A stretch of DNA of 64,000 nucleotides from an uncultured Spirochaetia bacterium (GTDB lineage: Bacteria; Oederibacteriota; PGYV01; Palsa-1178). Below are positions 32,358 through 63,940 of this stretch, piece by piece; positions within the stretch are counted from its first letter, which is position 1; each line of letters opens with the position of its first letter. The notes beneath the pieces are model-generated. The model made no database searches and was not told where the DNA came from. It saw only the letters and a list, made by a program, of their open reading frames with translations. The stretch covers positions 34,823 to 98,822 of the forward strand of contig CAYUDX010000011.1 of NCBI GenBank assembly GCA_964443355.1. Direction: 5' to 3'. The position numbers and the translations under genes are program-made.

Positions 32358-32553
32358 GATAAAACGCTTGTGAAATATAGTGAAATCTATCTTTTGGTGG
32401 TCAAATTTGGCACAAAAAAAAGTTAGAAATGGTCAAAAGTTATACAAATTTTCAGTTTAATATTGACTTAAAGAAAGAGTATTATATAATAACCAGATGA
32501 TTAAATAATGACCAATTACGGCATGTTATATGCTTATAAATATGGAGGACAAG

Positions 32554-37529: not shown

Positions 37530-38045
37530 ATGCCCACAGTAAAAGTGTTGCCGGCGGACGTGAAAAAGTTGGACGAGATCATCAAAGCTTATGAAAACAA
37601 GCAGGGACGGGTTCTTGGCGTCCTGGAAGAGGCGCAGAAGATAAATAAGCACAATTTTTTGCCCGAGGATACCATCAATTATATCTCCTCGAAGCTCAAT
37701 GTGCCGTTGTCGCGGCTTTATAGCATAGTTACATTTTATTCTTTTTTTAACCTCAAACCGCAGGGGGATCACACCATAATCGTATGCAGGGGAACAGCCT
37801 GTCACACAAAAGGGTCAAAATCCCTTCTGGACGATGTCGGCGGCCAGATGGGCGGCACAAAGGAACTGGAAGGCGGCGAGCCGTCTTTCACAACGCCGGA
37901 CAACAAGTTTACAATAAGGACCGTGGCCTGTTTCGGGCAATGCGCGCTGGCGCCTGTTGTGTCAATAGACGGGGTCATCCATTCTAATGTAACATCGTCG
38001 CAGCTTCGCAGGCTCGTTCAAAAAACGCAGAAGGGGAGGAAATAG
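37530..38045 (+). CDS. NuoE/HndA-like [2Fe-2S] thioredoxin-like subunit (diaphorase/bifurcating hydrogenase gamma-type)
   Basis: CRGTACHTKG...CFGQCALAPV motif; AGGGAG ribosome-binding site. Confidence 0.85.
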   Translation: MPTVKVLPADVKKLDEIIKAYENKQGRVLGVLEEAQKINKHNFLPEDTINYISSKLNVPLSRLYSIVTFYSFFNLKPQGDHTIIVCRGTACHTKGSKSLLDDVGGQMGGTKELEGGEPSFTTPDNKFTIRTVACFGQCALAPVVSIDGVIHSNVTSSQLRRLVQKTQKGRK

Positions 38046-38047
38046 AA

Positions 38048-41203: not shown

Positions 41204-41221
41204 TGAAAAGGAGAAAACCAA

Positions 41222-43000: not shown

Positions 43001-43076
43001 AATGGTTTATAATAAAGACCGCCGGGATATCTGAAAAGCCCGGCGGGTTTTTAATAAACGCTGATGCGGAGAATAT

Positions 43077-43913
43077 ATGTATAAAATCACACTGAAGAAA
43101 CAGCTGACGAAGGACATCAAGCTCATGGGCGTACTCGCCCCGCATGTCGTGAAAAACGCGAAGGCCGGGAATTTTGTTATCGTGATACCAGGAGAGACCG
43201 GCGAAAGGGTCCCGCTTACCATTTATGATTGGGACTCAAAGAGCGGCGTTGTATATATCATCTTCCAGGAAGTGGGGGTTTCCACGGTAAAGCTGGGCAT
43301 GATGAACGAGGGCGATTCCGTGTATTCCATTGCGGGCCCGCTTGGCCGCCATTTCCACACCGAGAAATACGGCAATACGGTTGTCGTCGGCGGCGGCGTA
43401 GGAGTGCCGGCGATATTTCCGATAGCGAGGGCGCTTCGTTCCGAAGGCAACCGCGTGACATCCATCACGGGTTTCAGGAGCAGCGACCTTATCATCCTCG
43501 AAAAAGAAATGGGAACCGTTTCCGATAAGGTTATAACCGCCACGAACGACGGGTCAAGCGGCACAAAAGGGCTTGTGACCGATGCTCTGAAATCACTGCA
43601 TGATACCGGTGAAAAGATAGACCTGGTAGTGGCTGTGGGCCCCGTGGTCATGATGAAAGCCGTGTCCGAGCTTACAAAGCAGCTGGGGATAAAGACCATA
43701 GTTAGCCTGAACGCCCTCATGCTCGACGGGACAGGTATGTGCGGAGGCTGCAGGGTCACAATAGGCGGCAAGGTAAAATTCTCGTGCGTTGACGGCCCGG
43801 ATTTTGACGGACATCTTGTTAATTTCAACGAACTTACAAGCAGGCTCGCGACATTCAAGGCGGAAGAAAAAATATCGCTTGAGCACTGCAAAATACATCT
43901 GGCTGGCAGGTAA
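43077..43913 (+). CDS. nfnA: NfnA/SudB-like (PyrK-type) FAD/NAD-binding [2Fe-2S] subunit
   Basis: PyrK-like fold with a C-terminal CGGCRV...C motif; high similarity in pattern to NfnA (ferredoxin-NADP+ reductase α subunit). Confidence 0.8.
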   Translation: MYKITLKKQLTKDIKLMGVLAPHVVKNAKAGNFVIVIPGETGERVPLTIYDWDSKSGVVYIIFQEVGVSTVKLGMMNEGDSVYSIAGPLGRHFHTEKYGNTVVVGGGVGVPAIFPIARALRSEGNRVTSITGFRSSDLIILEKEMGTVSDKVITATNDGSSGTKGLVTDALKSLHDTGEKIDLVVAVGPVVMMKAVSELTKQLGIKTIVSLNALMLDGTGMCGGCRVTIGGKVKFSCVDGPDFDGHLVNFNELTSRLATFKAEEKISLEHCKIHLAGR

Positions 43914-43919
43914 ACAAAC

Positions 43920-45326
43920 ATGGCAAAAAAAGAACGCCTAAAAGTACGGCAGCAGGCGGCAAACGAAAGGATACGTAATTTCGAAGAAGTACCCTTCGGT
44001 TATGACGACAACGAGGCAAAACTCGAGGCGTCCCGCTGCCTTCAATGCAAGAACCCGACATGCATTCAGGGCTGTCCCGTCAATATAAACATAAAGGAAT
44101 TCATCAGTCAGATAGCCTCAGGGGACGTTGCCGGCGCTATCAAGACGATAAAAGAATCGAACAGCCTTCCGGCGGTCTGCGGAAGGGTATGCCCGCAGGA
44201 AACACAGTGCGAAGAAAAATGCGTCCTGTTAAAAACAGGGCAGGCGATCAATATCGGCGCTCTTGAGAGGTACGCAGCCGATTGGGAAGCCGCGAACATG
44301 GAAACAAAGGCACAGGTCATCACTCCGGTATTGGGCCGCGACGGCAAACAGATAAAAGTCGCGATAGCCGGCTCCGGACCGGCAGGACTGACCGTTGCCG
44401 GAGAACTTGCAAAGCTCGGTTATAAGGCGGTTATTTTTGAGGCCCTTCATCTGCCTGGAGGCGTGCTTGTATACGGCATTCCTGAATTCAGGCTGCCGAA
44501 GGCGATAGTGAAAAGGGAAGTCGATTACCTGAAAACACTCGGTGTGGAGATACAGACTGACGTACTTGTCGGGAAATCCTATACTATAGACGACCTGGTA
44601 CAGGATGGTTTTCAGGCTGTCTTTATAGGCGTAGGGGCCGGTACGCCGTCTTTTATGAACGTCCCGGGGGAAAATTTCAAAGGGGTTTATTCATCCAACG
44701 AGTTCCTTACGAGGATGAACCTTCTTAAAGCATATAAATTTCCGGAATACGACACGCCGGTCAAGCTTGGGAAAAAAGTCGCCGTGGTCGGGGCGGGAAA
44801 CGTGGCCATGGATTCGGCGCGTGTTTCCAGAAGGCTAAAGGGCGTGGAGGAGGTCCATATAATATACAGGCGTTCCGAGAAAGAAATGCCCGCCAGGCAC
44901 GAGGAGATCGAGCACGCTAAGGAAGAGGGGATAATACTGGACCTGCTTACCAATCCGGTTGAAATAATTTCCGATGAGAACGGTTTCGTATCAAAGATCA
45001 AATGCGTAAGGATGGAACTTTGCGAGCCCGACGCCTCGGGAAGATGCGGTACAAAGGCAATTCCGGGATCGGAATTCATCATGGAAGTCGACAATGTCAT
45101 CCCGGCGCTTGGGACAAAGGCCAATGAATTACTCACTACAAACGTCAAAGGCTTGAAATTAAACAAATGGGGTTACATAGAGGCAAACCCGGAGACCGGG
45201 GCTACTTCAATACCGGGAATATTCGCGGGCGGAGATATTTCAACGGGTTCGGCGACGGTTATAGCGGCAATGGGAGCCGGCAAAAAAGCCGCCGCAGCGA
45301 TCGACATTTATCTTAAGGCAAAGTAA
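43920..45326 (+). CDS. nfnB: NfnB/SudA/GltD-like NADPH-dependent oxidoreductase subunit (2×[4Fe-4S] plus FAD)
   Basis: CLQCKNPTCIQGCP...CGRVCPQETQCEEKC, IAGSGPAGLTVAGEL, VVGAGNVAMDSA; 7 nt after nfnA. Confidence 0.8.
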   Translation: MAKKERLKVRQQAANERIRNFEEVPFGYDDNEAKLEASRCLQCKNPTCIQGCPVNINIKEFISQIASGDVAGAIKTIKESNSLPAVCGRVCPQETQCEEKCVLLKTGQAINIGALERYAADWEAANMETKAQVITPVLGRDGKQIKVAIAGSGPAGLTVAGELAKLGYKAVIFEALHLPGGVLVYGIPEFRLPKAIVKREVDYLKTLGVEIQTDVLVGKSYTIDDLVQDGFQAVFIGVGAGTPSFMNVPGENFKGVYSSNEFLTRMNLLKAYKFPEYDTPVKLGKKVAVVGAGNVAMDSARVSRRLKGVEEVHIIYRRSEKEMPARHEEIEHAKEEGIILDLLTNPVEIISDENGFVSKIKCVRMELCEPDASGRCGTKAIPGSEFIMEVDNVIPALGTKANELLTTNVKGLKLNKWGYIEANPETGATSIPGIFAGGDISTGSATVIAAMGAGKKAAAAIDIYLKAK

Positions 45327-45647
45327 TTAATTAATATAGTTTGGGACAGGGACAAATCGCACTTTAACGTGTATCATATTGAAAAAGTTCAATAGATACC
45401 GACTATATCTTTATGCCCGGTATTGTCTAAAATCTTTTTTTCACAAGCAAATTGACAAATTGCTACCATTATGATATCATTTAAATGTTACCCGGTATTT
45501 TTCATTTTACTTTTAAAGAATATTATGGCGTTTTTTTTATCTTGACATAATTTGGGCTTCGCTGTATATTCTCACCAATTAAAGACTAACTTTTTACATA
45601 GTCACAGGAGAGTTCAGAGCCGCTCTCTGCCTTTAATATAAAAACAT

Positions 45648-45663
45648 GTGAAAATAATCACAT
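45648..45663. promoter_or_regulatory. TGTGA-N6-TCACA palindrome (CRP/FNR-type or Rex-type operator) ~30 nt upstream of the hnd-type operon
   Basis: aTGTGAaaataaTCACAt, centred ~35 nt upstream of the 45690 ATG. Confidence 0.45.
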
Positions 45664-45689
45664 ACTAAAATATACGGAGGTAAATGCAC

Positions 45690-46187
45690 ATGATGTTAGA
45701 AAAGCAAGAGATACAGCTTGAAAAACCGCTGCTTGATTTCATGGACCAATGGAAAGACAAGCCGGGCAATGAGATCATGGTACTGCACAAGATCCAGGAA
45801 ATATACGGGTATGTGCCGAGAAAAGTGGCAATGGAAGTGTCCAGGTTGATGGGCATACCGCTTGCGAAGATTTACGGCATTATTACATTTTATCATTTAT
45901 TCAAGCTTTCCAAACCCGGCAAGAACCAGATCCAGGTGTGCCTGGGTACGGCCTGCTATCTTAAAGGCAGCAATGACATTATACAGGAGATAGAGAATAT
46001 CCTGGGAGTCGCGGTAAATTCCACAAGCGACGATGGAATGTTTTCCCTCGAAATAGTCCGTTGCGTCGGTTGCTGCGGACTGGCTCCGGTGATGCTAGTC
46101 AACGGAAAAACCCACGGCAACGTGCTGAAAACAGACCTGCCGAAGATCCTTGGCGAATACAGCAAAAAAGAGGAGGCGCTTAAATAA
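45690..46187 (+). CDS. HndA/HydC/NuoE-like [2Fe-2S] subunit of a bifurcating [FeFe] hydrogenase
   Basis: CLGTACYLKG...CVGCCGLAPV; GGAGG ribosome-binding site. Confidence 0.85.
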   Translation: MMLEKQEIQLEKPLLDFMDQWKDKPGNEIMVLHKIQEIYGYVPRKVAMEVSRLMGIPLAKIYGIITFYHLFKLSKPGKNQIQVCLGTACYLKGSNDIIQEIENILGVAVNSTSDDGMFSLEIVRCVGCCGLAPVMLVNGKTHGNVLKTDLPKILGEYSKKEEALK

Positions 46188-46570
46188 TGGAAAAGATGAA
46201 AAAGGGCGACCTTGAAAAATTCAGGAAAAATTACAAGACAGAGCAAAAGGGAGAAGTAATGATCTCCATGGGCACCTGCGGGATAGCCGCCGGCGGCGAC
46301 GCTGTATATAAGATATTCGAGGACGAACTGAAAAGCAACGGGCTTGAGGGAAGCGTAAAGCTCAAGAAAACAGGCTGCCTGGGGATGTGCTTTTGCGAGC
46401 CCAATATGGTTGTAAAGATAAACGGCATGCCCGAGATACTTTACGGCAACGTCGACGAAAAAGCCGCCCACGCGATCGTGTCGGAACACATTATCAAGAA
46501 AAACATACTGAACAATTATGTTATATTCATGCCTTCGACGGATACCGGCAAGAATATATTCAAAGACTAG
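46187..46570 (+). CDS. HndB-like small thioredoxin-like [2Fe-2S] ferredoxin subunit
   Basis: MGTCGIAAGG...GCLGMCFCEP; homologous to the N-terminal domain of the 38048 fusion protein. Confidence 0.75.
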   Translation: MEKMKKGDLEKFRKNYKTEQKGEVMISMGTCGIAAGGDAVYKIFEDELKSNGLEGSVKLKKTGCLGMCFCEPNMVVKINGMPEILYGNVDEKAAHAIVSEHIIKKNILNNYVIFMPSTDTGKNIFKD

Positions 46571-46580
46571 GAGGCCTGCG

Positions 46581-48347
46581 ATGAATAAACAATATATTTT
46601 TGTCTGGGAGCCCGCCGCATCAAAGGACAAGCCCGTTTACAATACTTTCGTAAAGCTTGTCAATGAAAAGGGGCTGACGGATTCTTTTGAGGTTATAAGG
46701 AGCCCGTTCATAGGATTTACGACGGACGGGCCCATAGCCAGGGTTATGCCGGATGGCGTCATCTACACCAAATTCAAGGCTGAGGATGCGGACGACATTA
46801 TCAGCGCCCATATGAAGGGCGCAAGGCTAGATAAGTTCGTCCTTTCCTATGACAATAAGTTCCTGCCGATCAAGGAAAAGGATGCGACAAGCAAGCAATT
46901 TAAAATTGTCCTGAGGAACATTGGATACCTCGATCCGGAATCCATCGACGAGTACATAATGAGGGGCGGATACAAGGCCCTTGAAAAGGCGCTTTTTGAC
47001 CTCAATGAGGACAAGGTCATAGTGGAGATGAAGGCATCCGGGCTGCGCGGCAGGGGCGGCGCGGGATTCCCGACCGGCCTGAAATGGGAACTTACAAAAA
47101 AAGAAAAGAACGCGGAAAAATATGTGATATGCAATGCCGATGAAGGAGATCCGGGAGCTTATATGGACAGGAGCGTCCTTGAAGGCGACCCGCATTCCGT
47201 GATCGAGGGCATGATAATCGGCGGTTACGCGGTAGGTTGCACTCGCGGTTTTATTTACATAAGGGCGGAATATCCGCTGGCAATTGAAAGGCTTGAAAAA
47301 GCGCTGAAATCCGCAAGGGAATACGGGCTTCTCGGGAACAACATACTGGGTTCCAGTTTTTCCTTTGACATCGAGCTGCGCTGGGGCGCGGGCGCGTTCG
47401 TGTGCGGCGAAGAAACCGCCCTTATCGCGTCGATCGAGGGAAAAAGGGGAAATCCGAGGCCGCGGCCCCCATTCCCGTCGGTTTCCGGACTCTGGGGAAA
47501 ACCCACTTTTATCAATAATGTAGAGACATGGGCAAACGTTCCCGCAATAGTCGAAAGGGGCGGCGCCTGGTTCGCCTCTATCGGAACTGAAAAATCAAAG
47601 GGGACAAAAGTTTTTGCCGTGACCGGAAAGGTCACGAACCCCGGCCTCGTGGAAGTGCCCATGGGCACGACCATCAGGGAAATAGTTTATGACATTTGCG
47701 GAGGCATCCAGAACGGCAAGAAATTCAAGGCCGTGCAGACAGGCGGGCCGTCCGGAGGCGTCATACCGGAAAAATACCTGGATATGCCCATAGATTACGA
47801 ATCGCTACAATCGATAGGATCCATCATGGGATCAGGCGGCCTCATTGTAATGGATGAGGACGACTGCATGGTCGACGTCAACAAGTTCTACCTGCAGTTC
47901 TCGGTCGACGAATCGTGCGGAAAATGCTCGCCGTGCAGGATAGGCGGCAAGCAGATACTCGAATTGCTCGAAAAAATATCAAAAGGCAACGGCGACCCGG
48001 AGGACATAACGAAGATCAGGTCCATATCGATCGCAATGCAGAAGGCATCGCTTTGCGCCCTCGGCCAGACGACGCCAAACCCGGTCATTTCCGCCCTCAC
48101 TTATTTTGAGGACGAGTATATGGAGCACATTACGGACAAGAAATGCCTGACCGGGAAATGCCGCGACCTCGTTGAATACACGATAATCACGGAAAAATGC
48201 ATCGGCTGCGGGCTTTGCGCGATAAGGTGCCCCGTGAAATGCATCAGCGGAGAGAAACGCAAGCCCTATGTTATAGACAAAAAGCAGTGCATAAAATGCG
48301 GTGAATGCTACAACGTCTGCAAGTTCGACGCCGTAAAGAGAGGATGA
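46581..48347 (+). CDS. HndC/HydB/NuoF-like NAD(P)H-binding FMN flavoprotein subunit with a C-terminal 2×[4Fe-4S] ferredoxin domain
   Basis: GRGGAGFPTG, CNADEGDPGA, SCGKCSPCRIG; C-terminal CIGCGLCAIRCP...CIKCGECYNVC; AGGAGG ribosome-binding site. Confidence 0.9.
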   Translation: MNKQYIFVWEPAASKDKPVYNTFVKLVNEKGLTDSFEVIRSPFIGFTTDGPIARVMPDGVIYTKFKAEDADDIISAHMKGARLDKFVLSYDNKFLPIKEKDATSKQFKIVLRNIGYLDPESIDEYIMRGGYKALEKALFDLNEDKVIVEMKASGLRGRGGAGFPTGLKWELTKKEKNAEKYVICNADEGDPGAYMDRSVLEGDPHSVIEGMIIGGYAVGCTRGFIYIRAEYPLAIERLEKALKSAREYGLLGNNILGSSFSFDIELRWGAGAFVCGEETALIASIEGKRGNPRPRPPFPSVSGLWGKPTFINNVETWANVPAIVERGGAWFASIGTEKSKGTKVFAVTGKVTNPGLVEVPMGTTIREIVYDICGGIQNGKKFKAVQTGGPSGGVIPEKYLDMPIDYESLQSIGSIMGSGGLIVMDEDDCMVDVNKFYLQFSVDESCGKCSPCRIGGKQILELLEKISKGNGDPEDITKIRSISIAMQKASLCALGQTTPNPVISALTYFEDEYMEHITDKKCLTGKCRDLVEYTIITEKCIGCGLCAIRCPVKCISGEKRKPYVIDKKQCIKCGECYNVCKFDAVKRG

Positions 48348-48353
48348 CAAAAC

Positions 48354-50126
48354 ATGTATACAACAAAAACAACCGGTAAAATGATAAACATGAAGATAAA
48401 CGGAAAGGATTATTCGGTCGATTCAGGCATGACCATACTGGAGGCGGCAAGGCTTGCGCACGTCAAGATACCGACGCTCTGCAAGCACGACGACCTGCCC
48501 GCAACCGCGTCATGCGGCATTTGCGTCGTAAAGGCGAAAGGCAACAGAAAACTTCTGCGCGCCTGCTGCACCTACGTGGAACCCAACATGGAGATCACTA
48601 CGCACGACGGCGAGCTTTACCAGGTAAGGAAGAACGTCCTTGACCTGATCCTCTCGTCCCATCCTTTCGTATGCCTGACATGCCTCAGGAACGGGGATTG
48701 CGAACTGCAGACCCTGGCAGAGGAATTCGGCATAAGGTCCAGGCCATACAAGGAAATGCTCCAGGACATCAAAAAAGACACATCCACAAAAGCCGTTGTG
48801 CTTGACCCGATAAAATGCATCCATTGCGGGCGCTGCGTGGAAGTGTGCCAGAACATACAGAAGGTTTACGCCCTTGAATTTTTGGACAGGGGATTTGAAT
48901 CCAGGATAGCCCCGGCAGGAGACATTTCGCTATCCGATTCGCCGTGCATTAAATGCGGACAGTGCTCGGCGCATTGCCCGGTGGGCGCGCTTGTCGAGTT
49001 CAGCGAGATTCCGAAGGTCTGGGACGCGCTAGGAAATCCCGACGTTTACCCCATAGTTCAGATAGCGCCGGCTGTAAGGGTGGCAATAGGAGAGGCTTTC
49101 GGATTGCCTTCCGGCACGATCCTTACCAAGAAACTTTACGCCCTTTTCAGAAGACTCGGTTTTAAGGCTGTTTTTGACACAAATTTCGGGGCCGACCTGA
49201 CGATCATGGAAGAAGGCTCGGAACTGATTGAAAGGATCAAGACCGGCAACGGCGCAATGCCCCTTATCACAAGCTGCTGCCCGGCATGGGTTGATTTCCT
49301 TGAAAAATATTATCCGGACCTCATCGAACATTTTTCCACGGCCAAGTCGCCGCATGAAATGGTCGGAGCGCTGGCGAAAACATACTATGCGCAAAAGGCC
49401 GGGATAGACCCTTCAAAAATGTTCGTTGTCTCGGTAATGCCCTGCACTGCAAAGAAATACGAGGTATCAAGGACCGCGGACATGAGTTCGTCGGGTTTCC
49501 AGGATGTCGACGTATCCATCACGACGAGGGAACTTGTCAGGATGATAAAATCAAGCGGCATCAAGATGCTTGAACTCGATGATGAAGAGGCTGATTCCAT
49601 TCTGGGGACATACACCGGCGCCGGCACCATATTCGGCGCCACCGGAGGCGTCATGGAAGCCGCCATAAGGACCGCATACTTTTTGCTCACCAATAAGAAC
49701 CTTGACAACATCAATGTCGAAGTCGTCAGGGGCTTGACAGGGGTAAAAAGCGGCGTCATAGACGCCGGCGGGACAAAGATACGAGTGGCGGTCGCCCACG
49801 GCACGGGGAATGTGCGCGCCGTCATGGATGAATTGCGCGCCGCGAAAAAGGCGGGAGCGCCTATGCCGTACGACTTTATAGAAGTCATGGCATGCGAAGG
49901 CGGATGCATAGCAGGCGGAGGACAGCCATACCGTGTCACCAATGCCGTGAGAAAAACAAGGACCGAAGGCATATACAAGGACGACGTGCAGTCAAAACTC
50001 AGGCAGTCTCATGAAAATCCGGACGTACAGAAACTTTACAAGGATTTCCTCGAGAAACCGCTTTCACACAAGGCGCATAAGCTGCTCCATAACCATTACT
50101 CGGCAAGGCCGATCTATTACAAATAG
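48354..50126 (+). CDS. hydA: [FeFe] hydrogenase catalytic subunit HydA/HndD, M3-type, canonical H-cluster motifs
   Basis: L1 TSCCPAW, L2 MPCTAKKYE, L3 EVMACEGGCIAGGGQP; N-terminal 2Fe-2S/4Fe-4S accessory domains. Confidence 0.95.
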   Translation: MYTTKTTGKMINMKINGKDYSVDSGMTILEAARLAHVKIPTLCKHDDLPATASCGICVVKAKGNRKLLRACCTYVEPNMEITTHDGELYQVRKNVLDLILSSHPFVCLTCLRNGDCELQTLAEEFGIRSRPYKEMLQDIKKDTSTKAVVLDPIKCIHCGRCVEVCQNIQKVYALEFLDRGFESRIAPAGDISLSDSPCIKCGQCSAHCPVGALVEFSEIPKVWDALGNPDVYPIVQIAPAVRVAIGEAFGLPSGTILTKKLYALFRRLGFKAVFDTNFGADLTIMEEGSELIERIKTGNGAMPLITSCCPAWVDFLEKYYPDLIEHFSTAKSPHEMVGALAKTYYAQKAGIDPSKMFVVSVMPCTAKKYEVSRTADMSSSGFQDVDVSITTRELVRMIKSSGIKMLELDDEEADSILGTYTGAGTIFGATGGVMEAAIRTAYFLLTNKNLDNINVEVVRGLTGVKSGVIDAGGTKIRVAVAHGTGNVRAVMDELRAAKKAGAPMPYDFIEVMACEGGCIAGGGQPYRVTNAVRKTRTEGIYKDDVQSKLRQSHENPDVQKLYKDFLEKPLSHKAHKLLHNHYSARPIYYK

Positions 50127-50159: not shown

Positions 50160-50198
50160 GGCGGCCGGGCGGATAAAACCACCCGGCCGTTTTTTTTT
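50160..50198 (+). terminator. Rho-independent terminator after hydA
   Basis: cggccggg...cccggccg stem followed by T9. Confidence 0.8.
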
Positions 50199-50304
50199 AA
50201 AAACCTTTTAAATCCTACTAAAATGGTAATATTTAATTTGAAATTTCCTTGAAAATCGGGTATAATTTGATGTATAATATATCAATTAATAAAACAAAAA
50301 GGTC

Positions 50305-51783
50305 GTGAAGAGCATGCTTACACAAAAACAGTTATCCTGGAAACAGGACAGGATACGTCAGGTCATGAAGTATCTTGATGAGGAAAAAAGGCCGGATTTT
50401 ATCGACGACGGCCTCATAGAAGGGCTGATCGCGGCGCCTTCGGCCATTGACAGGGTGAAAATATCCGAACTTTTGACGAAAGCAAAGGCGTTAAAAGGGC
50501 TTACGCCCGGGGAAGCCGCATACCTTATGAACATAAACGACAATGACATCTGGAATGAAATATTTGCCACAGCAATGGAAGTAAAATTGTCGGTTTACGG
50601 CAACAGGATAGTTCTTTTCGCTCCGTTATACATTTCGGATGAATGCGTCAACGACTGCGTTTATTGCGGCTACAGGAGCTCGAACAAGGAAATAAACCAC
50701 CAGGGGCTCACCGACGATGAATTAAGGGCGGAAATCAGGGCTATGACCGACATGGGGCAGAAAAGGATAGTGGCGGTTTACGGCGAAGGGCCGGAAAACG
50801 ACGCCGATTATATCGCGCACAGCATGGAAGTCATATATTCGGTGAAAAACGGAAGAGGCGAGATCAGGCGTGTGAACATCAACGCGGCCCCGCTTTTCGT
50901 GGACGAATACAAGAAAATAAAAGCCGCCGGCATCGGGACGTTCCAGGTATTTCAGGAAACCTATAATAAGGCCAGGTATAAGCAGCTTCACGGGACCGAC
51001 AACGTAAAAAGCATCTATAAATGGCGGCTTTTGTCGCAGCACCGGGCTCAGGAGGCGGGGATATCCGACGTTGCAATAGGGGCCCTTTTCGGGATATATG
51101 ACTGGAGATTTGAGGTCATGGGACTGCTTTATCATGCCGCAGACATGGACAGGGAATTCGGCGTAGGGTCGCATACAATATCGTTTCCGCGGCTGAATCC
51201 GGCGTTGAACACCCCTTTTTACACAAAGAACCAATATAAAGTTACGGACGAGGACATGAAAAAGATAATAGCCATACTCAGGCTTTCCGTGCCTTATACC
51301 GGGTTGATACTTACTGCAAGGGAGAATCCGCAGCTTAGGCATGACCTTATAAAGCTCGGTGTCTCGCAGATCGACGCCGGTTCAAATATAGCAATCGGCG
51401 GTTACCAGAAGGGCAGGGATGCTTCAAAGGAACAGTTCCAACTTTCCGACAACCGCTCGCTGGATGATTGCATTTCAGAGCTGGTGGACGAAGGCTACAT
51501 ACCCTCGTTTTGCACGGCGGATTACAGGTGCGGCAGGGTCGGATGCGAGTTCATGGAGCTGGCAAAATCGGGGAAAATCAAGAATTTATGCATACCCAAC
51601 GCGGTGTTGACATTCGAGGAATACCTGCTCGATTACGCTTCGCCGGCTGTAAAGGATAAGGGCGAGAAGCTCCTGGCGGGTTATGTGAAATTTGTCAGGG
51701 AAAGCTACTCCGCGGTAATGGCAAAAAACGTTGAAGATTATCTTGTCAGGATAAAGAACGGAGAGAGAGATCTGTACTTTTAA
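50305..51783 (+). CDS. hydG: [FeFe] hydrogenase maturase HydG (radical SAM tyrosine lyase)
   Basis: CVNDCVYCGY radical-SAM motif, ThiH-like core, C-terminal Cys-rich (CTADYRCGRVGCEF) auxiliary cluster region; start ambiguous (GTG 50305 or ATG 50314). Confidence 0.85.
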   Translation: MKSMLTQKQLSWKQDRIRQVMKYLDEEKRPDFIDDGLIEGLIAAPSAIDRVKISELLTKAKALKGLTPGEAAYLMNINDNDIWNEIFATAMEVKLSVYGNRIVLFAPLYISDECVNDCVYCGYRSSNKEINHQGLTDDELRAEIRAMTDMGQKRIVAVYGEGPENDADYIAHSMEVIYSVKNGRGEIRRVNINAAPLFVDEYKKIKAAGIGTFQVFQETYNKARYKQLHGTDNVKSIYKWRLLSQHRAQEAGISDVAIGALFGIYDWRFEVMGLLYHAADMDREFGVGSHTISFPRLNPALNTPFYTKNQYKVTDEDMKKIIAILRLSVPYTGLILTARENPQLRHDLIKLGVSQIDAGSNIAIGGYQKGRDASKEQFQLSDNRSLDDCISELVDEGYIPSFCTADYRCGRVGCEFMELAKSGKIKNLCIPNAVLTFEEYLLDYASPAVKDKGEKLLAGYVKFVRESYSAVMAKNVEDYLVRIKNGERDLYF

Positions 51784-51814
51784 CCGTAATCCATCAACAT
51801 GAATGGGGCCAATA

Positions 51815-53227
51815 ATGAGGATTGAGAAGGATATGCTGGGGGAAAAAGAAATTCCCGACGACAAATATTACGGGATACACACGCTGCGTGCAATGGAAAA
51901 TTTCGGCCCCGCAATCGAGGCCATAGACCCCGTATTTATCAAAGGTTATTTGTTCGTAAAAAAAGCCGCCTGCCTGACCAATATCGAGATAAAAACCCTT
52001 GACGAAAGACGCGGCAGGGCCATTATAGGGGCCATAGACGCCCTGCTTGCTTCCCGAGATCATTCGCAGATATGCGTGAATCCGCTATCCGGAGGGGCAG
52101 GCACGTCGATAAACATGAACGTGAACGAAGTCATAGCCAACATGGCGCTTGAACTTGCAGGAAGAAAAAAAGGGGACTACGCTTTTATAAGCCCGCTTGA
52201 CCACGTCAATATGCACCAGTCCACCAACGACACCTTCCCGACGGCCCTGCGCGTGGCAATGATGCTGCGTCTGAAAACCCTTGAGAATGCCCTTATTTCG
52301 CTCCAGGAGTCCCTGCAGGCGCGTGAAAAGGAGTTCTCCGACGTTGTACGGCTGGCAAGGACAGAGCTCATGGATGCCCTGCCGACGACCGTAGGAATGC
52401 AATTCTCCGCATACGCCGAGGCAATAGGCCGCGACAGGTGGAGGATCTTCAAGTCGGAAGAACGCATCAAGACGGTGAACCTCGGAGGAACGGCAATAGG
52501 AACCGGTTTTGGAGCTCCGCAGGAATATATTTTCAGGGCATGGCAGCATTTGAAGGCCCTTTCAGGGCTCTCCCTTACAAGGGCGGAGAATCTGGTCGAC
52601 TCAACCCAGAATTTCGACCAGATAATCGAGGTAATGGCCATGGTAAAAGCGCTGGCCGTCAACATTATGAAGATATCAGGGGATATAAGGCTTTCCGCAT
52701 CCGGGCCGGAAGGCGGGCTGGGAGAATTTATTTTACCGTCCCTTCAGGAGGGTTCCTCAATAATGGCCGGCAAAGTAAACCCTGTAATCGCGGAATTCTG
52801 CGCTCAGTCATCACTGCAGGTCATAGCAAACGATTCTGCAATTGCCACGGCAGCCGGGCTCGGAAATCTTGACCTTAACCAGTACGCGCCACTTATAGCG
52901 CATATGTCACTTAAGAACCTTAACCTTATGGAAATGTCGGTAAGTTTGTTGGACCAGAAGCTTGTTAGAGGAATCAAACTAAGCATGGACAGGATCAATA
53001 ATAACCTTCACGGCTCCCTGGCCATATTGACATATTTAAGCCTGACAATAGGCCATGACAGGGCTTCCGAGACCGCCTTTAAGATGAAAGAGACCGGAAA
53101 AAGCGCCCGCGAGATCCTTGATGAAAGCGGCATCTTAAGCGTCCAGAAATATGACGAACTTGTCCGGCCCGAAAATATCAGGATGCTTGGGATAAAGACC
53201 GGTTCCAAGGGAGACTTATCCACATGA
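51815..53227 (+). CDS. Aspartate ammonia-lyase / class II fumarase-family lyase
   Basis: Fumarate-lyase signature GSSIMAGKVNP; ~470 aa; embedded between hydG and hydF. Confidence 0.8.
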   Translation: MRIEKDMLGEKEIPDDKYYGIHTLRAMENFGPAIEAIDPVFIKGYLFVKKAACLTNIEIKTLDERRGRAIIGAIDALLASRDHSQICVNPLSGGAGTSINMNVNEVIANMALELAGRKKGDYAFISPLDHVNMHQSTNDTFPTALRVAMMLRLKTLENALISLQESLQAREKEFSDVVRLARTELMDALPTTVGMQFSAYAEAIGRDRWRIFKSEERIKTVNLGGTAIGTGFGAPQEYIFRAWQHLKALSGLSLTRAENLVDSTQNFDQIIEVMAMVKALAVNIMKISGDIRLSASGPEGGLGEFILPSLQEGSSIMAGKVNPVIAEFCAQSSLQVIANDSAIATAAGLGNLDLNQYAPLIAHMSLKNLNLMEMSVSLLDQKLVRGIKLSMDRINNNLHGSLAILTYLSLTIGHDRASETAFKMKETGKSAREILDESGILSVQKYDELVRPENIRMLGIKTGSKGDLST

Positions 53228-54438
53228 CGCAGACCCCGTCGGCCAACAGGTTGCAGATAGGTATCTTTGGAAGGCGCAATGCCGGAAAATCTTCCTTCAT
53301 AAACGCCCTTACGGGACAAAATTTGGCCATTGTTTCGGATACTCCGGGCACCACAACAGACCCTGTAGCCAAGGCTGTGGAGATACGCGGATTGGGGTCG
53401 GTTATGCTCTATGATACGGCAGGTTTGGACGATACAGGAGAGCTTGGTGACAAGAGGGTGGCCAGGTCAAGAGAGGTCATGAAGAAGGTTAACTTCGGGG
53501 TCATTATTACCACCTATTCCTCGTGTGGCAAGCTCGAAGAAGAGCTCATAAATGAGTTCAAAAATACGGGTAAAACATGCATTGTTTTGTTCAACAAAAT
53601 AGACATTGAACAAAAGGATGAAGAAAAAGAAAAAATCTTTAAAAACAATAAAACAAACTATTTTTCTTTAAGCGCCACCACAGGACAAAACATTGACGAA
53701 ATTAGGAGCCTGATAGTCCGACTTTGTTCAGAACTTCAGGCTGAAGATTCCACGATATTGGGGGATCTTATAAGCCAGGGAAGTTTGGTCGTTCTTGTCG
53801 TACCAATTGACCTTGGCGCGCCAAAGGGCAGGCTTATTTTACCCCAGGTCCAGGTCATCAGGGACATCCTGGACAATGACGCCATTGCCGTAACTGTGAA
53901 GGAACGGGAACTGCAATATACGCTAAAAACTTTGGGTCAAAAACCGGCATTGGTGGTATGCGATTCTCAGGTGGTTTTAAAGGCTGCAGGAGACGTACCG
54001 GACGGCATAAAACTCACCACTTTTTCCATTCTTTTTTCCCGACTCAAGGGCGACCTGGCTGAACTTGTCAGGGGAGTCAAGACTGTGGATAACTTAAAGG
54101 ACGGTGACAGGGTTCTTATCATGGAGGCCTGCACTCATCACGCTCAGGCTGATGATATCGGCCGGGTAAAAATCCCCCGTTGGTTAAGGCAATACACGGG
54201 CAAGAACCTTGAATTTGAATCGAACGCCGGCCCCTATGTGAGCAAGGATTTGAGCCGCTATAAACTCATAATTGCCTGCGGCGGCTGCATGATAAACCGG
54301 CAGGAAATGCTCTCCAGGATGAAGGACTCGGCAGCCTTAAACGTGCCCATGACCAATTACGGTGTCCTGATTTCATACGTCCAGGGAGTGGCTAAAAGGG
54401 TACTTGAACCTTTCCCGGAAACGCGGGGGATATTATAA
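53224..54438 (+). CDS. hydF: [FeFe] hydrogenase maturase HydF (GTPase scaffold)
   Basis: G1 GRRNAGKSS, G3 DTAG; C-terminal CxH...HCxxC-type cluster motif (EACTHHAQ...ACGGCM); ATGA overlap with the upstream gene. Confidence 0.9.
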   Translation: MTQTPSANRLQIGIFGRRNAGKSSFINALTGQNLAIVSDTPGTTTDPVAKAVEIRGLGSVMLYDTAGLDDTGELGDKRVARSREVMKKVNFGVIITTYSSCGKLEEELINEFKNTGKTCIVLFNKIDIEQKDEEKEKIFKNNKTNYFSLSATTGQNIDEIRSLIVRLCSELQAEDSTILGDLISQGSLVVLVVPIDLGAPKGRLILPQVQVIRDILDNDAIAVTVKERELQYTLKTLGQKPALVVCDSQVVLKAAGDVPDGIKLTTFSILFSRLKGDLAELVRGVKTVDNLKDGDRVLIMEACTHHAQADDIGRVKIPRWLRQYTGKNLEFESNAGPYVSKDLSRYKLIIACGGCMINRQEMLSRMKDSAALNVPMTNYGVLISYVQGVAKRVLEPFPETRGIL

Positions 54439-54714
54439 ACAGGCATTCTGTATGGGCCGCCCTATGTGGCGGCCCGGCATTGGTTTTGCTGTGTCGGTAT
54501 TGTGGCCTTGAAACTGTTGTTGCGGGACAGGCGGAATTTTTTTACGGCACTGCCGTCCGAAGCTTTGCTTGAGGCAGATCGGAACAAAGACCTGGAAATT
54601 AAAGTTTTACCTTTGCTTAATTTACAAAGTAGTTTTTGTTGGACGTTTGGCCGAAAAAAGTTCCGCCTGTCCCGCGCAGGTTTCCTGATGATAAAAGGAT
54701 CATGGTGAATTACA

Positions 54715-55752
54715 ATGGACAAAACAACAGAATATATTAAACAAATAACCGCCGGCAACGCCACGGCTGAAAATATTACATACCTGCTTTCAATACCCAC
54801 GCGCGAGGAATTCAGGCCTGTTTTTGACGAATCGGCCCGCATATGCAAAAGGTATTTTGGCGACCGGGTTTTCATGCGCGGTATAATTGAATTTTCCAAT
54901 TATTGCCGAAAGGGGTGTTATTATTGCGGCATAAATCGGGCAAATAAAAATATAGGACGCTACAGGATCCCGCTTGAGGAAATTATCGAAGCCGCTGTTT
55001 TCATGAAAAAGAACAGGGCCATGACCGTTGTCCTGCAGTCCGGCGAGGACCCGGGGTACGACAGGATTCTCATGGAAGCCATACGGACAATAAAAAACAA
55101 GCTTAATATGGCCGTGACCATATCTGTCGGCGAAAGGGAGCCTGATGTCTACAGGCAATTCCTTAAGGCCGGGGCGGACAGGTATCTGCTGCGAATAGAG
55201 ACCACAGACAGGGTCTTATTCAAGAAACTCCATCCGGACGATGACCTGCAATACCGTAAAAAGTGCCTTTATGCCCTCAAGAAGCTCGGTTTTGAGGTAG
55301 GGACGGGAATTATGGTGGGTTTACCCGGGCAGAGCCTGGAATCGATAGCTGACGATCTTTTGTTCTTTAGGGAACTTAACCCCGCAATGGTTGGCATCGG
55401 GCCGTTTTTGGCCCATAAGGAGACAAAGCTTAAGGATTTTAAGAACACGGACATATTTCCCACGCTTAAGACACTGGCCTTAATACGGCTGATACTCCCG
55501 AAATCAAACCTTCCTGCCACCACTGCAATGGGAACAATATCTCCTACGGGAAGGCAACAGGCCCTGAAGATCGGCGCCAATGTCATAATGCCTAATTTTA
55601 CCCCGTCCAAATACCGCGAAAGATACAAGCTTTACGACAACAAGATATGCGTCTCCGAGGAATACGGAAAATGCGCTTCCTGCACATCGGCCATAGCAAT
55701 GGCAGCCGGTAAGCGCATAGTCAAGAGCAAAGGCTATTCCAGGAACAAATGA
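54715..55752 (+). CDS. hydE: [FeFe] hydrogenase maturase HydE (radical SAM, BioB-like)
   Basis: CRKGCYYCG radical-SAM motif; ~345 aa biotin-synthase-like. Confidence 0.85.
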   Translation: MDKTTEYIKQITAGNATAENITYLLSIPTREEFRPVFDESARICKRYFGDRVFMRGIIEFSNYCRKGCYYCGINRANKNIGRYRIPLEEIIEAAVFMKKNRAMTVVLQSGEDPGYDRILMEAIRTIKNKLNMAVTISVGEREPDVYRQFLKAGADRYLLRIETTDRVLFKKLHPDDDLQYRKKCLYALKKLGFEVGTGIMVGLPGQSLESIADDLLFFRELNPAMVGIGPFLAHKETKLKDFKNTDIFPTLKTLALIRLILPKSNLPATTAMGTISPTGRQQALKIGANVIMPNFTPSKYRERYKLYDNKICVSEEYGKCASCTSAIAMAAGKRIVKSKGYSRNK

Positions 55753-56684
55753 ATACGACGCCAAAGATCACTGCCCTTGATTTTGAGACCGCAAATTATT
55801 TCAGGGGAAGCATCTGCGCGGCCGGAGTTGCCGTGATCGAGGACGGCCGCATCGGCGCGACAAAACGCTGGCTGATAAAACCCGGCAATAAATGTTCCGC
55901 TTTCATCCCGGAATTCATAAAAATACATTCCATTACCCCGGACACGGTAAAAAATGCCCCTTCGTTCGTTGAAATATTCCCGGAACTCAGGCAATACCTT
56001 GAAGGGGCCGTCGTAATAGCGCATAACTCATCGTTTGACATGACTGCATTAAGGGATGTGCTGACACTTTATTCCGTGGAATTCCCGGAATTTCAATATG
56101 GATGCACCCTTAAATTATCGAAAAAAGTGTGGAAAAACATGGCGGGTTACAGCCTTGATAAGGTGTGCTCGGCTTTGAACCATTCGTTCAACCACCATGA
56201 CGCCTTGGAAGACGCGGTGGCGTGCGCGCAAATATTTCTCGGAGCGGTAAAGGAACTCGGGGACGTGCGGAAGGCATTGCACATCATGGATATGAATAAA
56301 ATATTTCCCGGACAGCCTCACGCAATGGGCCGTATTTATGCGGCCAACGGTTTCGGGGAGCGGGTGGACATCAGGTCGATCAAGCCCGGAGTTGAAAAAT
56401 TCGACGAGACAAACCCCCTTTTCGGGAAAAAAGTCGTATTCACCGGCACCCTGTCGATGCCGCGCCAGGAGGCAATGCAGGAGGCGGTCGACCTCGGGGC
56501 CAGATTGGGGAATTCAGTGACCCGCGACACGGATTTTCTTGTCACGGGAGAGCGCGACGCCAGGTTCATGGCAAAAGGAATCATTGAAAGCGCAAAGACA
56601 AAAAAGGCAGGAGAATACGCTGCAGGAGGTTCGGCTATAAAGGTGATAAACGAGGCGCAGTTCATGGCTTTGATAGGGAGGTAG
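55749..56684 (+). CDS. DnaQ-like DEDDh 3'-5' exonuclease fused to a C-terminal BRCT domain
   Basis: Exo motifs ALDFETAN (I), HNSSFDMTAL (II), HHDALEDAVA (III); C-terminal KKVVFTGTLSMPRQEA...FLVTGE BRCT pattern; ATGA overlap with hydE. Confidence 0.75.
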   Translation: MNTTPKITALDFETANYFRGSICAAGVAVIEDGRIGATKRWLIKPGNKCSAFIPEFIKIHSITPDTVKNAPSFVEIFPELRQYLEGAVVIAHNSSFDMTALRDVLTLYSVEFPEFQYGCTLKLSKKVWKNMAGYSLDKVCSALNHSFNHHDALEDAVACAQIFLGAVKELGDVRKALHIMDMNKIFPGQPHAMGRIYAANGFGERVDIRSIKPGVEKFDETNPLFGKKVVFTGTLSMPRQEAMQEAVDLGARLGNSVTRDTDFLVTGERDARFMAKGIIESAKTKKAGEYAAGGSAIKVINEAQFMALIGR

Positions 56685-59627: not shown

Positions 59628-60242
59628 ATGGACAATACCGTGTATTTCGAGAACATACAGGCCAGGCCGGACAGGCAAAAGGTAATGTTCAGGCTCGGCT
59701 ACAAAAATGGGATGACGCAGATATCCGCCGCACAGTCAAGGCTGATTGAAGTAACTATCGATGATGGATTTTTTCTTTGCGAATTAAAGGGGGCATACTC
59801 GTTTTACGATGTTTTGAAAATATCGAAGGGCTCGGTCGCGCTCGCCTGCGGCATAACGCTGGAAAGCACGGATATTGCATCGGTCTTTGCCGGCTGCTCA
59901 AGGGCGCTGATAATGGCATCGACCGCCGGAAATGCCGTCATTGAGAAAAGGGACCTTGAAGTCAAGAACGGGAACGGGTCAACGGCGCTTGTCCTGGATG
60001 CGGCCGCATCGGAAACCGCGGATTACGGACTTGACTGGATGCAGGAATATCTGTCCGGGCAGCTTATAAAAAAATCCATGTCAATAACCCGCAGGTTCAG
60101 CCCGGGATACGGCGACCTTGGGCTTTCATACCAGAAACAGATATATGACATGCTGAAACTTGAAAAGATCGGCATCAGCATCACCGAAAGGTTCATACTG
60201 GTGCCGGAAAAATCCGTAATAGGGATATGTGGGATAAGATAA
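59628..60242 (+). CDS. Stand-alone methionine synthase B12-reactivation (AdoMet-binding) domain protein
   Basis: Pattern RFSPGYGDLGLSYQKQIYDML...IGISITE...LVPEKSVIGICG typical of the Met_synt_B12 activation domain; metH lacking this domain lies downstream. Confidence 0.65.
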   Translation: MDNTVYFENIQARPDRQKVMFRLGYKNGMTQISAAQSRLIEVTIDDGFFLCELKGAYSFYDVLKISKGSVALACGITLESTDIASVFAGCSRALIMASTAGNAVIEKRDLEVKNGNGSTALVLDAAASETADYGLDWMQEYLSGQLIKKSMSITRRFSPGYGDLGLSYQKQIYDMLKLEKIGISITERFILVPEKSVIGICGIR

Positions 60243-61513: not shown

Positions 61514-63940
61514 ATGGCTGAAAATAAGTTCAAAAAACTTTTAGACGAAAAAAAAATCATCATACTCGACGGCTCGTCCGGCGTTGCCATGCAAAAACGC
61601 GGCATGCCGAACGGCGTCTGCCCGGAGAAATGGGCGGTCGAAAATCCGTCCCATCTGATAGAGCTCCAGCGTGAATATGTCGGATCCGGGTCTCAGGTGA
61701 TATACACTTTCACATTCGGCGGGAACCCAATGAAGCTCGACGAATACGGGCTGAAAGACAGGACCTATGAAATAAACAAAAAATTGGGGGAAATATCAAG
61801 GGAGGCTGCCGGGGATTCGGCGCTTGTGGCCGGCGACATCGGGCCTTCAGGCCATTTTCCGGAACCTTTCGGGGACATTCCTTTCGAGGAAATGGTCTCG
61901 GCTTTCAAGGAACAGGCGCGGGGATTACTCGACGGCGGCGTTGACCTTTTCATCGTAGAAACATTTATAGACATCCAGGAGGCCAGAGCTGCCGTGCTGG
62001 CAATAAAGGAAATATGCGACCTGCCGGTAATCGTCTCGATGACATTTGACGAGGCGGGCAAGACGATCACCGGAACCGACCCGGTAAGCGCCGCAGTAAC
62101 TTTGCAGGCGCTGGGCGTGGATTGTGTCGGTGTCAACTGTTCCACGGGTCCCGCTGAAATGGTCAAAGTGATAAAGCAGATAAGGTCATACGTCAATATC
62201 CCGATAATAGCAAAACCAAACGCCGGATTGCCGCAGTTGATAAACGGCGAGACGGTCTTTGGAATGGGGGCAAAGGAATTCAGCTCCTATGCTCTGCCTC
62301 TAGCCAGGGCCGGGGCCGGCCTTATCGGCGGCTGCTGCGGCACCTCGCCGGAATTCATAAAACTCACCGAGGGCAGGCTTAAGGGTAAAAAACGCCGGTC
62401 GCCGGAGGAAAAATTAAAAAGCGCGCTTTCTTCAGCGCGCAAAAGCGTGTTCCCGGGCGGGAAAAATTTTGTAATAGTCGGCGAGCGGATAAATCCCACG
62501 GGCAAGAAACAGCTGCAGGCGGAGCTCAAAGAGGGTAAAGAGAGCGAGATAAGGAGATTTGCCGCGGAGCAGGCCAAAAACGGTGCGTCAGTGCTTGACG
62601 TAAACGTCGGGATGCCCGGAATAAGCGAGAAGGATGCGATGGTAAAGACCGTAAAATTTTTGTCCGGCATATCGGAGCTGCCGCTTTGCATAGACTCGTC
62701 AACTCCGGAGGTCATTGAAGCCGCGCTCAGGATATATCCCGGTAAGGCCGTCATTAATTCGATATCGGGCGAAAGGTCGAAATATGAAAAACTTCTTCCG
62801 CTGGCCGCGAAATACGGCGCCATGTTCATACTTCTCCCGCTGACCGACAGGGGCATTCCAAAAAGCGTTGACGAAAGGATGACCGTAATAAAAGAAGTTG
62901 TGTCTGCGGCAAAAAAACTCGGCATCGGCCCCGAAGACATAGCGGTTGACGGCCTTGTAATGACGGTTTCATCGGACCAGGCTGCCGCGCTTGTAACATT
63001 AAAGGTCATTGAAAAGTGCCGCAAAGAACTCAAATTAAACACCATTGTCGGGCTTTCCAACGTTTCTTTCGGGCTCCCCGAAAGGGCCCTGATAAATTCG
63101 ACATTTTTTAACCTGGCCCGCGCGAAAGGATTGACCATGGCGATAGCCAATCCCGCGCCGGACCTTTCCGTGACCGATAAATACGCCCGCAATCTGCTGC
63201 TTGGCAGGGATAAAAATGCCGCGGCATTCATAGCCAGATACGGCTCGGACGGCGGCAAAGGGCCGGCCCAGAAGGCTGCGGTGAAACAGTCCGCGCAGGC
63301 CGCCGGGGACCCTAAAAAAATATACGAATGCGTCATTACGGGGGACAGGGAAAATATCACACGGCACATCGAGGCCGCGTTAAAGGCCGGTGAAAAACCA
63401 TCGGAAATAGTGGACCTGAAACTTATACCAGCCATCGCGGAAGTGGGAAACTATTTTGACCAGAAAAAATATTTTTTACCGCAGTTGATCCAGAGCGCGG
63501 AAGCCATGAAGGCCGGTTTTGCGCTATTGGAGCCCCTGCTTGCGGCGGCGCCCGGCGCGACGGAGAAGAAAAAGACGGGGATAGTGCTTGCCACGGTAAA
63601 AGGCGACATCCACGACATAGGAAAAAACATAGTCGCACTGATGCTTAAAAATTACGGTTTTGAGGTCTATGACCTGGGAAAAGACGTGGCTGCGGAGATT
63701 ATAGTCGCCGAGGCCAAAGAAAAAGGCGCGCAGCTAATCGGCCTCTCGGCGTTAATGACCACAACAATGACCGAGATGCCTGAAGTGATCAGGCTTTCAA
63801 AAAAAGAAGGATTGAACGTAAAAATCATGATAGGCGGGGCCGTGGTAACCCAGGCATACGCGGACGAGATCGGGGCGAACGGGTATTCGAAGGATGCCTA
63901 TGAAGCCGTGAAGACCGCAAAAAGGCTCGGCAACACATGA
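61514..63940 (+). CDS. metH: Cobalamin-dependent methionine synthase (Hcy-binding, pterin-binding and B12-binding domains; no activation domain)
   Basis: Hcy-methyltransferase N-terminus, pterin-binding middle, B12-binding DIHDIGKNIV (DxHxxG) plus S..L..T motif; 808 aa. Confidence 0.9.
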   Translation: MAENKFKKLLDEKKIIILDGSSGVAMQKRGMPNGVCPEKWAVENPSHLIELQREYVGSGSQVIYTFTFGGNPMKLDEYGLKDRTYEINKKLGEISREAAGDSALVAGDIGPSGHFPEPFGDIPFEEMVSAFKEQARGLLDGGVDLFIVETFIDIQEARAAVLAIKEICDLPVIVSMTFDEAGKTITGTDPVSAAVTLQALGVDCVGVNCSTGPAEMVKVIKQIRSYVNIPIIAKPNAGLPQLINGETVFGMGAKEFSSYALPLARAGAGLIGGCCGTSPEFIKLTEGRLKGKKRRSPEEKLKSALSSARKSVFPGGKNFVIVGERINPTGKKQLQAELKEGKESEIRRFAAEQAKNGASVLDVNVGMPGISEKDAMVKTVKFLSGISELPLCIDSSTPEVIEAALRIYPGKAVINSISGERSKYEKLLPLAAKYGAMFILLPLTDRGIPKSVDERMTVIKEVVSAAKKLGIGPEDIAVDGLVMTVSSDQAAALVTLKVIEKCRKELKLNTIVGLSNVSFGLPERALINSTFFNLARAKGLTMAIANPAPDLSVTDKYARNLLLGRDKNAAAFIARYGSDGGKGPAQKAAVKQSAQAAGDPKKIYECVITGDRENITRHIEAALKAGEKPSEIVDLKLIPAIAEVGNYFDQKKYFLPQLIQSAEAMKAGFALLEPLLAAAPGATEKKKTGIVLATVKGDIHDIGKNIVALMLKNYGFEVYDLGKDVAAEIIVAEAKEKGAQLIGLSALMTTTMTEMPEVIRLSKKEGLNVKIMIGGAVVTQAYADEIGANGYSKDAYEAVKTAKRLGNT

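Follow-up and report, generated by a model that had tools for sequence, protein, structure and literature searches.

An aspartate ammonia-lyase of a hydF-linked subfamily in the [FeFe]-hydrogenase maturation cluster of an uncultured Spirochaetia bacterium, and its probable role as a source of bridgehead nitrogen

Where the bridgehead nitrogen of the H-cluster comes from was for a long time a missing piece in [FeFe]-hydrogenase biosynthesis. In their examination of hydF neighbourhoods, Pagnier et al. found at least one of aspA, ilvA and sdaA no more than 20 open reading frames (ORFs) away from 79% of authentic hydF genes, aspA being typically the nearest of the three (Pagnier et al., JBC 2024; PMC11736057). 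In the same work, 15N electron nuclear double resonance (ENDOR) with Escherichia coli AspA and 15N-aspartate traced the aspartate nitrogen to the bridgehead of dithiomethylamine, in a lysate-free system with H-protein, T-protein and serine hydroxymethyltransferase, and ammonium was found to stimulate the GTPase of HydF. The bridgehead-ammonium model has since been restated (PNAS 2025; PMC12501116). Here we consider a stretch of 64,000 nucleotides (nt) from contig CAYUDX010000011.1 of an uncultured Spirochaetia bacterium, referred to below as the window, in which a gene for an aspartate ammonia-lyase (aspartase) lies between hydG and hydF. The first-pass annotation of this DNA had noted that aspartase-like genes occur beside hyd maturase genes without an assigned role; the association holds, and a role was published in 2024, so that the pairing of aspartase with hydF can now be regarded as the genomic footprint of that answer.

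Published occurrences of aspA within hyd clusters include Pelobacter carbinolicus (hydG-aspA-hydF), Sulfurospirillum cavolei (hydG-aspA-hydE-hydF) and Desulfovibrio vulgaris; a literature search for the D. vulgaris locus tags gave no match. These clusters resemble the window in that a gene of the same family adjoins hydF in a hydE/F/G cluster near [FeFe]-hydrogenase genes, and the window order hydG-aspA-hydF is that of P. carbinolicus. The arrangement is thus already in the literature and the window copy is another instance of it, which differs in coming from an uncultured lineage and in being at most 50% identical to the sampled-species proteins among the matches listed. In the 2024 study aspA was defined by Pfam domain, a hyd-linked clade or Trp213 signature was not separated, and the enzyme used was E. 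coli AspA (PMC11736057). What sequence comparison adds here is a modest increment: delineation of a Trp213 subfamily, a complete aspartase active site kept by its members, and a strong linkage to hydF. The serine and threonine ammonia-lyases SdaA and IlvA share the proposed role of ammonium donor in maturation, but have unrelated folds and are usually not adjacent to hydF (PMC11736057); none was found among the ORFs scanned in the window.

The maturase genes and the lyase were found as four + strand ORFs that pass family models, in agreement with the first-pass annotation. For HydG, HydF and HydE we used the curated equivalog-level cut-offs of NCBIfam, all three of which were exceeded.

50305-51783, + strand: hydG (TIGR03955, 473 bits against a cut-off of 312), the radical S-adenosylmethionine (SAM) tyrosine lyase, source of the Fe(CO)2(CN)(Cys) synthon

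51803-53227, + strand: aspartate ammonia-lyase of the Trp213 (RDRWR) subfamily, assigned with domain and subfamily models; probable true start at ATG 51815

53224-54438, + strand: hydF (TIGR03918, 546 bits against a cut-off of 326; HydF_dimer and HydF_tetramer domains), the scaffold GTPase that carries installation of the dithiomethylamine bridge

54715-55752, + strand: hydE (TIGR03956, 373 bits against a cut-off of 255), a radical SAM maturase

HydG also matches PDB entry 4WCX with 462 bits. The lyase immediately adjoins hydF, with hydG on the 5' side and hydE on the 3' side of the pair, and its start is probably ATG 51815, and not 51803, because homologues begin MR(I/V/T)E.D. On balance we favour the reading that this gene encodes a catalytically competent L-aspartate ammonia-lyase, from a subfamily that travels with hydF, which would supply the bridgehead nitrogen of the [2Fe] subcluster. 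The evidence consists of the distribution of the gene across genomes and of the residues that it keeps and changes.

The co-occurrence of such lyases with hyd genes, one of the checks that the first-pass annotation had suggested, was surveyed from both partners. Anchored on the lyase, the first sample took one genome per species and comprised 80 aspartase loci among the matches listed (39-50% identity); we searched their flanks of up to 10 kb with the window HydG, HydF, HydE and HydA and read the aligned lyase residues. The motif RDRWR, which occupies residues 210-214 of the window lyase and includes Trp213, is carried by 35 of the 80 loci, in one case as RDWWR. A hydE, hydF or hydG gene lies in the flank of 29 of these 35 Trp213 loci versus one of the 45 others (Fisher's exact p = 8e-15). 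The usual immediate neighbour on the same strand is hydF, which follows the lyase in about 20 loci and directly precedes it in five (of Thermotoga, Treponema and Clostridia type). Of 20 distinct loci in which hydF follows the lyase, 13 have a lyase stop codon that overlaps or abuts the start codon of hydF, and these 13 include Planctomycetota, Victivallales, Calditrichota, Paenibacillus, Smithella, Kiritimatiellia and Acidobacteriota, among others. The sole aspartase with a hyd gene but without Trp213 is that of Anaerostipes faecalis (L079), in which the lyase is at 10001-11368 and hydF at 14109-15278, 2.7 kb downstream; this proximity could be due to chance or to independent recruitment.

The complementary sample, anchored on hydF in metagenome contigs, comprised 80 HydF loci at 46-90% identity, 60 of which had at least 1.6 kb of upstream sequence. 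A lyase stands immediately upstream of hydF in 30 of these 60 and elsewhere in the 4-kb flank in 5 more, and every lyase whose alignment covers the motif is of the Trp213 type. A relative whose lyase is 83% identical to that of the window matches it in gene order all the way from hydA to hydE. From these comparisons, the functional link between lyase and hyd genes is genuine and not a matter of chance adjacency.

The lyase and hydF overlap by ATGA at 53224-53227, as had been noted before, with the lyase stop TGA (53225-53227) overlapping the hydF start ATG (53224-53226) in the context ccacATGAcg; a Shine-Dalgarno sequence for hydF, AAGGGAG, lies inside the lyase gene, 8 nt upstream. The two genes are probably translationally coupled, and their products would hence be made together. 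The first-pass annotation took this tight coupling as an argument for a functional link. The link itself stands, on its recurrence in many phyla, but the overlap is not diagnostic of it: the hydE stop is likewise overlapped by the ATGA of an unrelated gene, at 55749-56684, for a DnaQ-like DEDDh exonuclease with a BRCT domain, so that an ATGA overlap alone is weak evidence. In the relative with the 83%-identical lyase, the DnaQ-like neighbour is absent from that place and a nucleotidyltransferase gene follows hydE. Thus, judged from the sampled loci, cross-phylum conservation and not overlap is the real evidence for the link between lyase and hydF.

In a neighbour-joining tree the Trp213 lyases form a monophyletic group, with a bootstrap value of 94/100 that remains 92/100 when 15 signature columns are removed, and the window lyase falls inside it. 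Of the 120 closest database homologues (50-93% identity), 117 are full-length, and every one of these carries RDRWR. Defining a clade-specific position as one that is at least 85% conserved inside the clade and shared by at most 15% outside it, we found eleven: His138, Glu161, Gln172, Glu175, Glu206, Trp213, Lys217, Arg221, Phe244, Arg260 and Leu364. Judged by their spacing, residues 206, 213, 217 and 221 would lie on one face of a helix, as would 161, 172 and 175. On the aspA equivalog model the clade gives 426-527 bits, versus 621-780 for aspartases outside it; there is no NCBIfam model specific for the clade, and a PDB search returned no solved structure within it, the best match being AspB. 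Two other substitutions were considered as markers of the hyd-linked clade and set aside: Glu188, since position 188 is Glu or Gln inside the clade and Glu also occurs outside, and Ala322, which is present in a few lineages only. Within the clade, a hydF-adjacent subgroup (loci L125, L135, L139, L146, L151, L156 and L160) has Tyr or Phe in place of the otherwise invariant Arg186 of the GRT motif and, in most of its members, Glu in place of Asp191 (YTQMQE/FTQLQE). The Trp213 signature offers experimenters a defined target, and an annotation marker that separates maturation-linked from housekeeping aspartases.

Another of the suggested checks, that of the active site, favours aspartase over fumarase. 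The lyase, of about 470 amino acids, matches Lyase_1 (PF00206, 245 bits) and FumaraseC_C (PF10415, 41 bits), as expected from the first-pass assignment to the fumarate-lyase superfamily, and its signature loop GSSIMAGKVNP spans residues 317-327 (nt 52751-52783). With 556 bits it exceeds the cut-off of 510 set for NF008909, a subfamily model of aspartate ammonia-lyase, and it scores higher on aspartase models (556, 466 and 422 bits) than on fumarase models (371 and 300 bits), the class II fumarase model giving 371 bits against a cut-off of 665. In the PDB search, aspartase structures scored 384-352 bits versus at most 291 for fumarases. The best match, at 384 bits, was AspB of Bacillus sp. YM55-1 (1J3U), with 42% identity over residues 4-461; because this alignment is ungapped, the lyase shares the residue numbering of AspB.

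In AspB, Ser318 is catalytic, with Ser319; Thr187, Met321, Lys324 and Asn326 form the alpha-carboxylate pocket, and Asn142 and His188 also contact the amine (PMC11744663). The window lyase keeps Thr101, Ser140, Thr141, Asn142, Thr187, Ser318, Ser319, Met321, Lys324 and Asn326. The first three of these have a role in the beta-carboxylate network of AspB. The sole exception among catalytic and aspartate-binding residues is His188, which is Glu in the window lyase; this is no disqualifier, because position 188 varies among the sampled aspartases, being mostly Gln, His in the Bacillus type, and Glu in the Campylobacter type (L075, L077) and others. The lyase thus has in common with AspB (1J3U, 3R6V) the catalytic Ser318/Ser319 loop and both carboxylate pockets, and differs from it in His188 to Glu, in Pro322 to Ala within the GSSxMPxKxNP signature, in RDIER to RDRWR and in ten further clade-specific substitutions; the AspB-type genes in our sample are not hyd-linked. 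E. coli-type AspA (1JSW) has the same fold and the same signature loop, but scores about 760 bits on its equivalog model TIGR00839, versus 466 for the window lyase, and its representatives in the sample (L056, L072) read GSSIMPAKVNP and are without Trp213.

Class II fumarase (FumC) belongs to the same superfamily and shares the domains and the GSSxMxxKxNP loop. Fumarases are characterised by the motifs QSSND and GSGTQ. The window lyase has instead the aspartase-type motifs QSTND and GGAGTS, QSSND and GTQ being absent, and it scores lower against fumarase models and structures. On these motifs and the family scores, an identity as fumarase or adenylosuccinate lyase was rejected. By these features the reaction is most likely the conversion of L-aspartate to fumarate and ammonium.

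How such an enzyme might serve maturation can be outlined by analogy with the reconstituted system. A promoter-like site before hydG would drive hydG, the lyase gene and hydF together, and the lyase, co-produced with HydF, would cleave aspartate to fumarate and ammonium. The T-protein of the glycine-cleavage system would combine this ammonium with methylene-tetrahydrofolate, whose one-carbon unit derives from serine, to give aminomethyl-lipoyl-H-protein, from which HydF would assemble the CH2-NH-CH2 bridge onto the di-iron precursor that comes from HydG and HydE. The hydrogenases whose genes lie just upstream would then receive the finished [2Fe] subcluster. A further effect of the ammonium may be to stimulate the GTPase of HydF, which depends on cations. 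No genes for glycine cleavage or serine hydroxymethyltransferase were found among the ORFs scanned in the window. We infer that the Trp213 subfamily acts in the same way in vivo, and that its production next to HydF matters. The suggestion of the first-pass annotation that an ammonia-lyase could supply an amine for the azadithiolate bridgehead therefore coincides with the model of Pagnier et al. (PMC11736057); we found no support for the processing of a C4-dicarboxylate, which it had offered as an alternative.

Several observations weigh against this reading. Delivery of aspartate nitrogen has been demonstrated with the housekeeping E. coli AspA only, NH4Cl replaces the lyase in vitro (PMC11736057), and we found no assayed member of the hyd-linked clade. 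The window lyase falls below the aspA equivalog TIGR00839 (466 bits against a cut-off of 681), as do four other clade members that were scanned alongside and that likewise pass NF008909, and two of the changes that set the clade apart from AspB, His138 and Glu188, are near the active site, His138 preceding the substrate-binding Ser140 by two residues. No lyase lies within 4 kb of about 40% of the sampled hydF genes, and 6 of the 35 clade members are without a hyd neighbour, from which it follows that the lyase is dispensable or replaceable. Finally, cytosolic ammonium should not be scarce, because the window encodes ammonium transporters, glutamine synthetase III and glutamate synthase. Replacement of the lyase by NH4Cl, ample ammonium, hydF genes without a lyase and clade members without hyd genes together leave room either for local delivery or channelling of ammonia, or for a metabolic rationale based on fumarate.

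Local delivery would fit a dedicated accessory factor that docks on HydF or the T-protein for direct hand-over of ammonia, or that uses a substrate other than free aspartate, and that is not interchangeable with a housekeeping aspartase. The Trp213 clade is indeed distinct and well supported, and its eleven specific residues include His138 and what, from their spacing, would be the helical stripes Glu206-Trp213-Lys217-Arg221 and Glu161-Gln172-Glu175. Its systematically lower aspA equivalog scores and the lack of a dedicated NCBIfam model point the same way, and the codon overlap with hydF would favour co-production. In contrast, all aspartate-contacting residues are kept, His188 to Glu aside, defined systems without such a protein give fully active hydrogenase (PMC12501116), some clade members stand alone, and no lyase-HydF fusion was seen among the 120 closest homologues. 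We therefore regard such a factor as unlikely, although it deserves more weight than the other alternatives. In its most specific form, in which the hyd-linked aspartases would be a dedicated fourth maturation factor, co-translated with HydF and docking through the clade-specific helical surface to deliver ammonia locally, the proposal is speculative and we hold it doubtful; if true, it would explain why the gene is kept beside hydF in organisms with ample ammonium. A metabolic coupling, in which the aspartase feeds aspartate catabolism, fumarate serves as carbon source or electron sink, reducing equivalents leave as H2 and the genes are co-expressed for that reason, has been proposed for P. 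carbinolicus (PMC3543383), and Pagnier et al. mention fumarate as a useful by-product (PMC11736057). The intact catalytic residues of the lyase and the frequent presence of hydrogenase structural genes within a few kb of it are compatible with such coupling. The conserved partner, however, is not hydA but hydF, a low-abundance maturase, often with overlapping codons; the pairing spans phyla of very different metabolisms; and the ORFs scanned in the window include neither a fumarate reductase nor a dicarboxylate transporter. This explanation appears improbable to us. Least credible, to the point that we consider it effectively refuted by the co-occurrence data, is the chance placement of an ordinary housekeeping aspartase or fumarase beside the hyd genes. 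The product carries the plain annotation aspartate ammonia-lyase, and as no second aspartase was found among the ORFs scanned in the window the lyase could be the organism's only copy, but the contrast in hyd linkage between Trp213 loci and other aspartases, the lyases beside hydF in half of the hydF-anchored loci, the identical synteny in relatives and the absence of fumarase-type motifs all stand against such an accident. Supply of bridgehead nitrogen by a hydF-linked aspartase thus remains the account that we prefer.

The transcription signals around the cluster bear on which genes would be produced with the lyase.

50161-50198, + strand: intrinsic terminator downstream of hydA, in which a U run follows a GC-rich hairpin (fold -25.2 kcal/mol, z = -3.0)

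50238-50278, + strand: two overlapping sigma-70-like promoter matches upstream of hydG (TTGAAA-17/18-TATAAT, 11 of 12 positions), by consensus match only

54453-54476, + strand: GC-rich hairpin 15 nt past the hydF stop, terminator-like with a poor T tail

54522-54675, + strand: long hairpin of 154 nt in the hydF-hydE spacer, with 22-nt inverted-repeat arms and nested repeats

With a terminator after hydA and promoter matches before hydG, the maturase genes appear to form their own transcription unit. The spacer between hydF and hydE, of 276 nt (54439-54714), is strongly structured (fold -109.9 kcal/mol, z = -5.6), and because it contains a terminator-like hairpin ahead of hydE, that gene may be a separately regulated unit. 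Of the single hydG-lyase-hydF-hydE operon in the first-pass annotation, the hydG-lyase-hydF part is thus retained, and hydE may lie outside it. Nothing in the hydA-hydG and hydF-hydE spacers reached Rfam gathering thresholds, and a riboswitch or other known RNA was rejected, the sole relaxed match being to a plant microRNA-precursor model (E = 0.09) through hairpin shape only. A conserved RNA element between hydF and hydE was also rejected: relatives with 70-90% HydF identity have different hairpins there, which in close relatives are long and unrelated in sequence, and one locus has a spacer of 3 nt. Nor is the long hairpin a dispersed repeat, as its arms were found nowhere else in the window.

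The cluster motifs of HydG and HydF in the window both deviate from the canonical form. In the C-terminal part of HydG, the auxiliary-cluster motif CX2CX22C reads CTADYRC...C, and not CTACYR...C (residues 403-429, nt 51511-51591); the second Cys is replaced by Asp, with a new Cys three residues later and another at +8. An independent lineage (L030, L033, L101-L103) has CTAGYRC, and CTACYR without an extra Cys is found in 30 of 40 other distinct sampled HydG sequences, the window's own lineage excluded. Because loss of the second Cys is always accompanied by a new Cys in the 48 distinct sampled loci, the pattern suggests that a cluster ligand has moved. In HydF, the motif CxH...HCxxC reads CxH...ACGGC (residues 351-356, nt 54274-54291), with Ala in place of His; this position is also Ala in the relatives L081-L083, Gln in L008 and His in 27 others. 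Neither variant is a sequencing error, because both are common to relatives at 83-90% identity.

Upstream of hydG, at 37530-50126, are two paralogous operons for multimeric [FeFe]-hydrogenases of the NuoE/NuoF/HydA type. The second, a NuoE/ferredoxin/NuoF/HydA operon at 45684-50126, ends with a HydA that is the presumed client of the maturases, and the nitrogen-assimilation neighbourhood, at 16577-34653 and within 20 kb of the maturase operon, has the large and small subunits of glutamate synthase among its genes.

48354-50126, + strand: [FeFe]-hydrogenase catalytic subunit of the HydA/HndD type (NF040763, 798 bits; Fe_hyd_lg_C and Fe_hyd_SSU)

23002-24384 and 28436-29773, - strand: two ammonium transporters

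24976-26874: amino-acid-transporter-like protein fused to a P-II domain

30106-32217: glutamine synthetase type III

32530-34653: sigma-54 activator

In the first hydrogenase operon, NuoF and a GltD-like NAD(P)-binding module form a single protein of 1051 amino acids (38048-41203); the two operons are separated by an NfnAB-like pair (43077-45326). Elsewhere in the window, a protein of 1586 amino acids with a type IX secretion C-terminal sorting domain is encoded at 10365-15125, and a PorV/PorQ-family protein at 36178-37092; as type IX secretion markers, the two suggest affinity with the FCB group. At 61514-63940 there is a MetH-like protein of 808 amino acids without an activation domain, its match ending at profile position 855 of 1182, and upstream of it an ORF of 204 amino acids (59628-60242) weakly matches the MetH activation domain; from these matches, the two are possibly a split methionine synthase.

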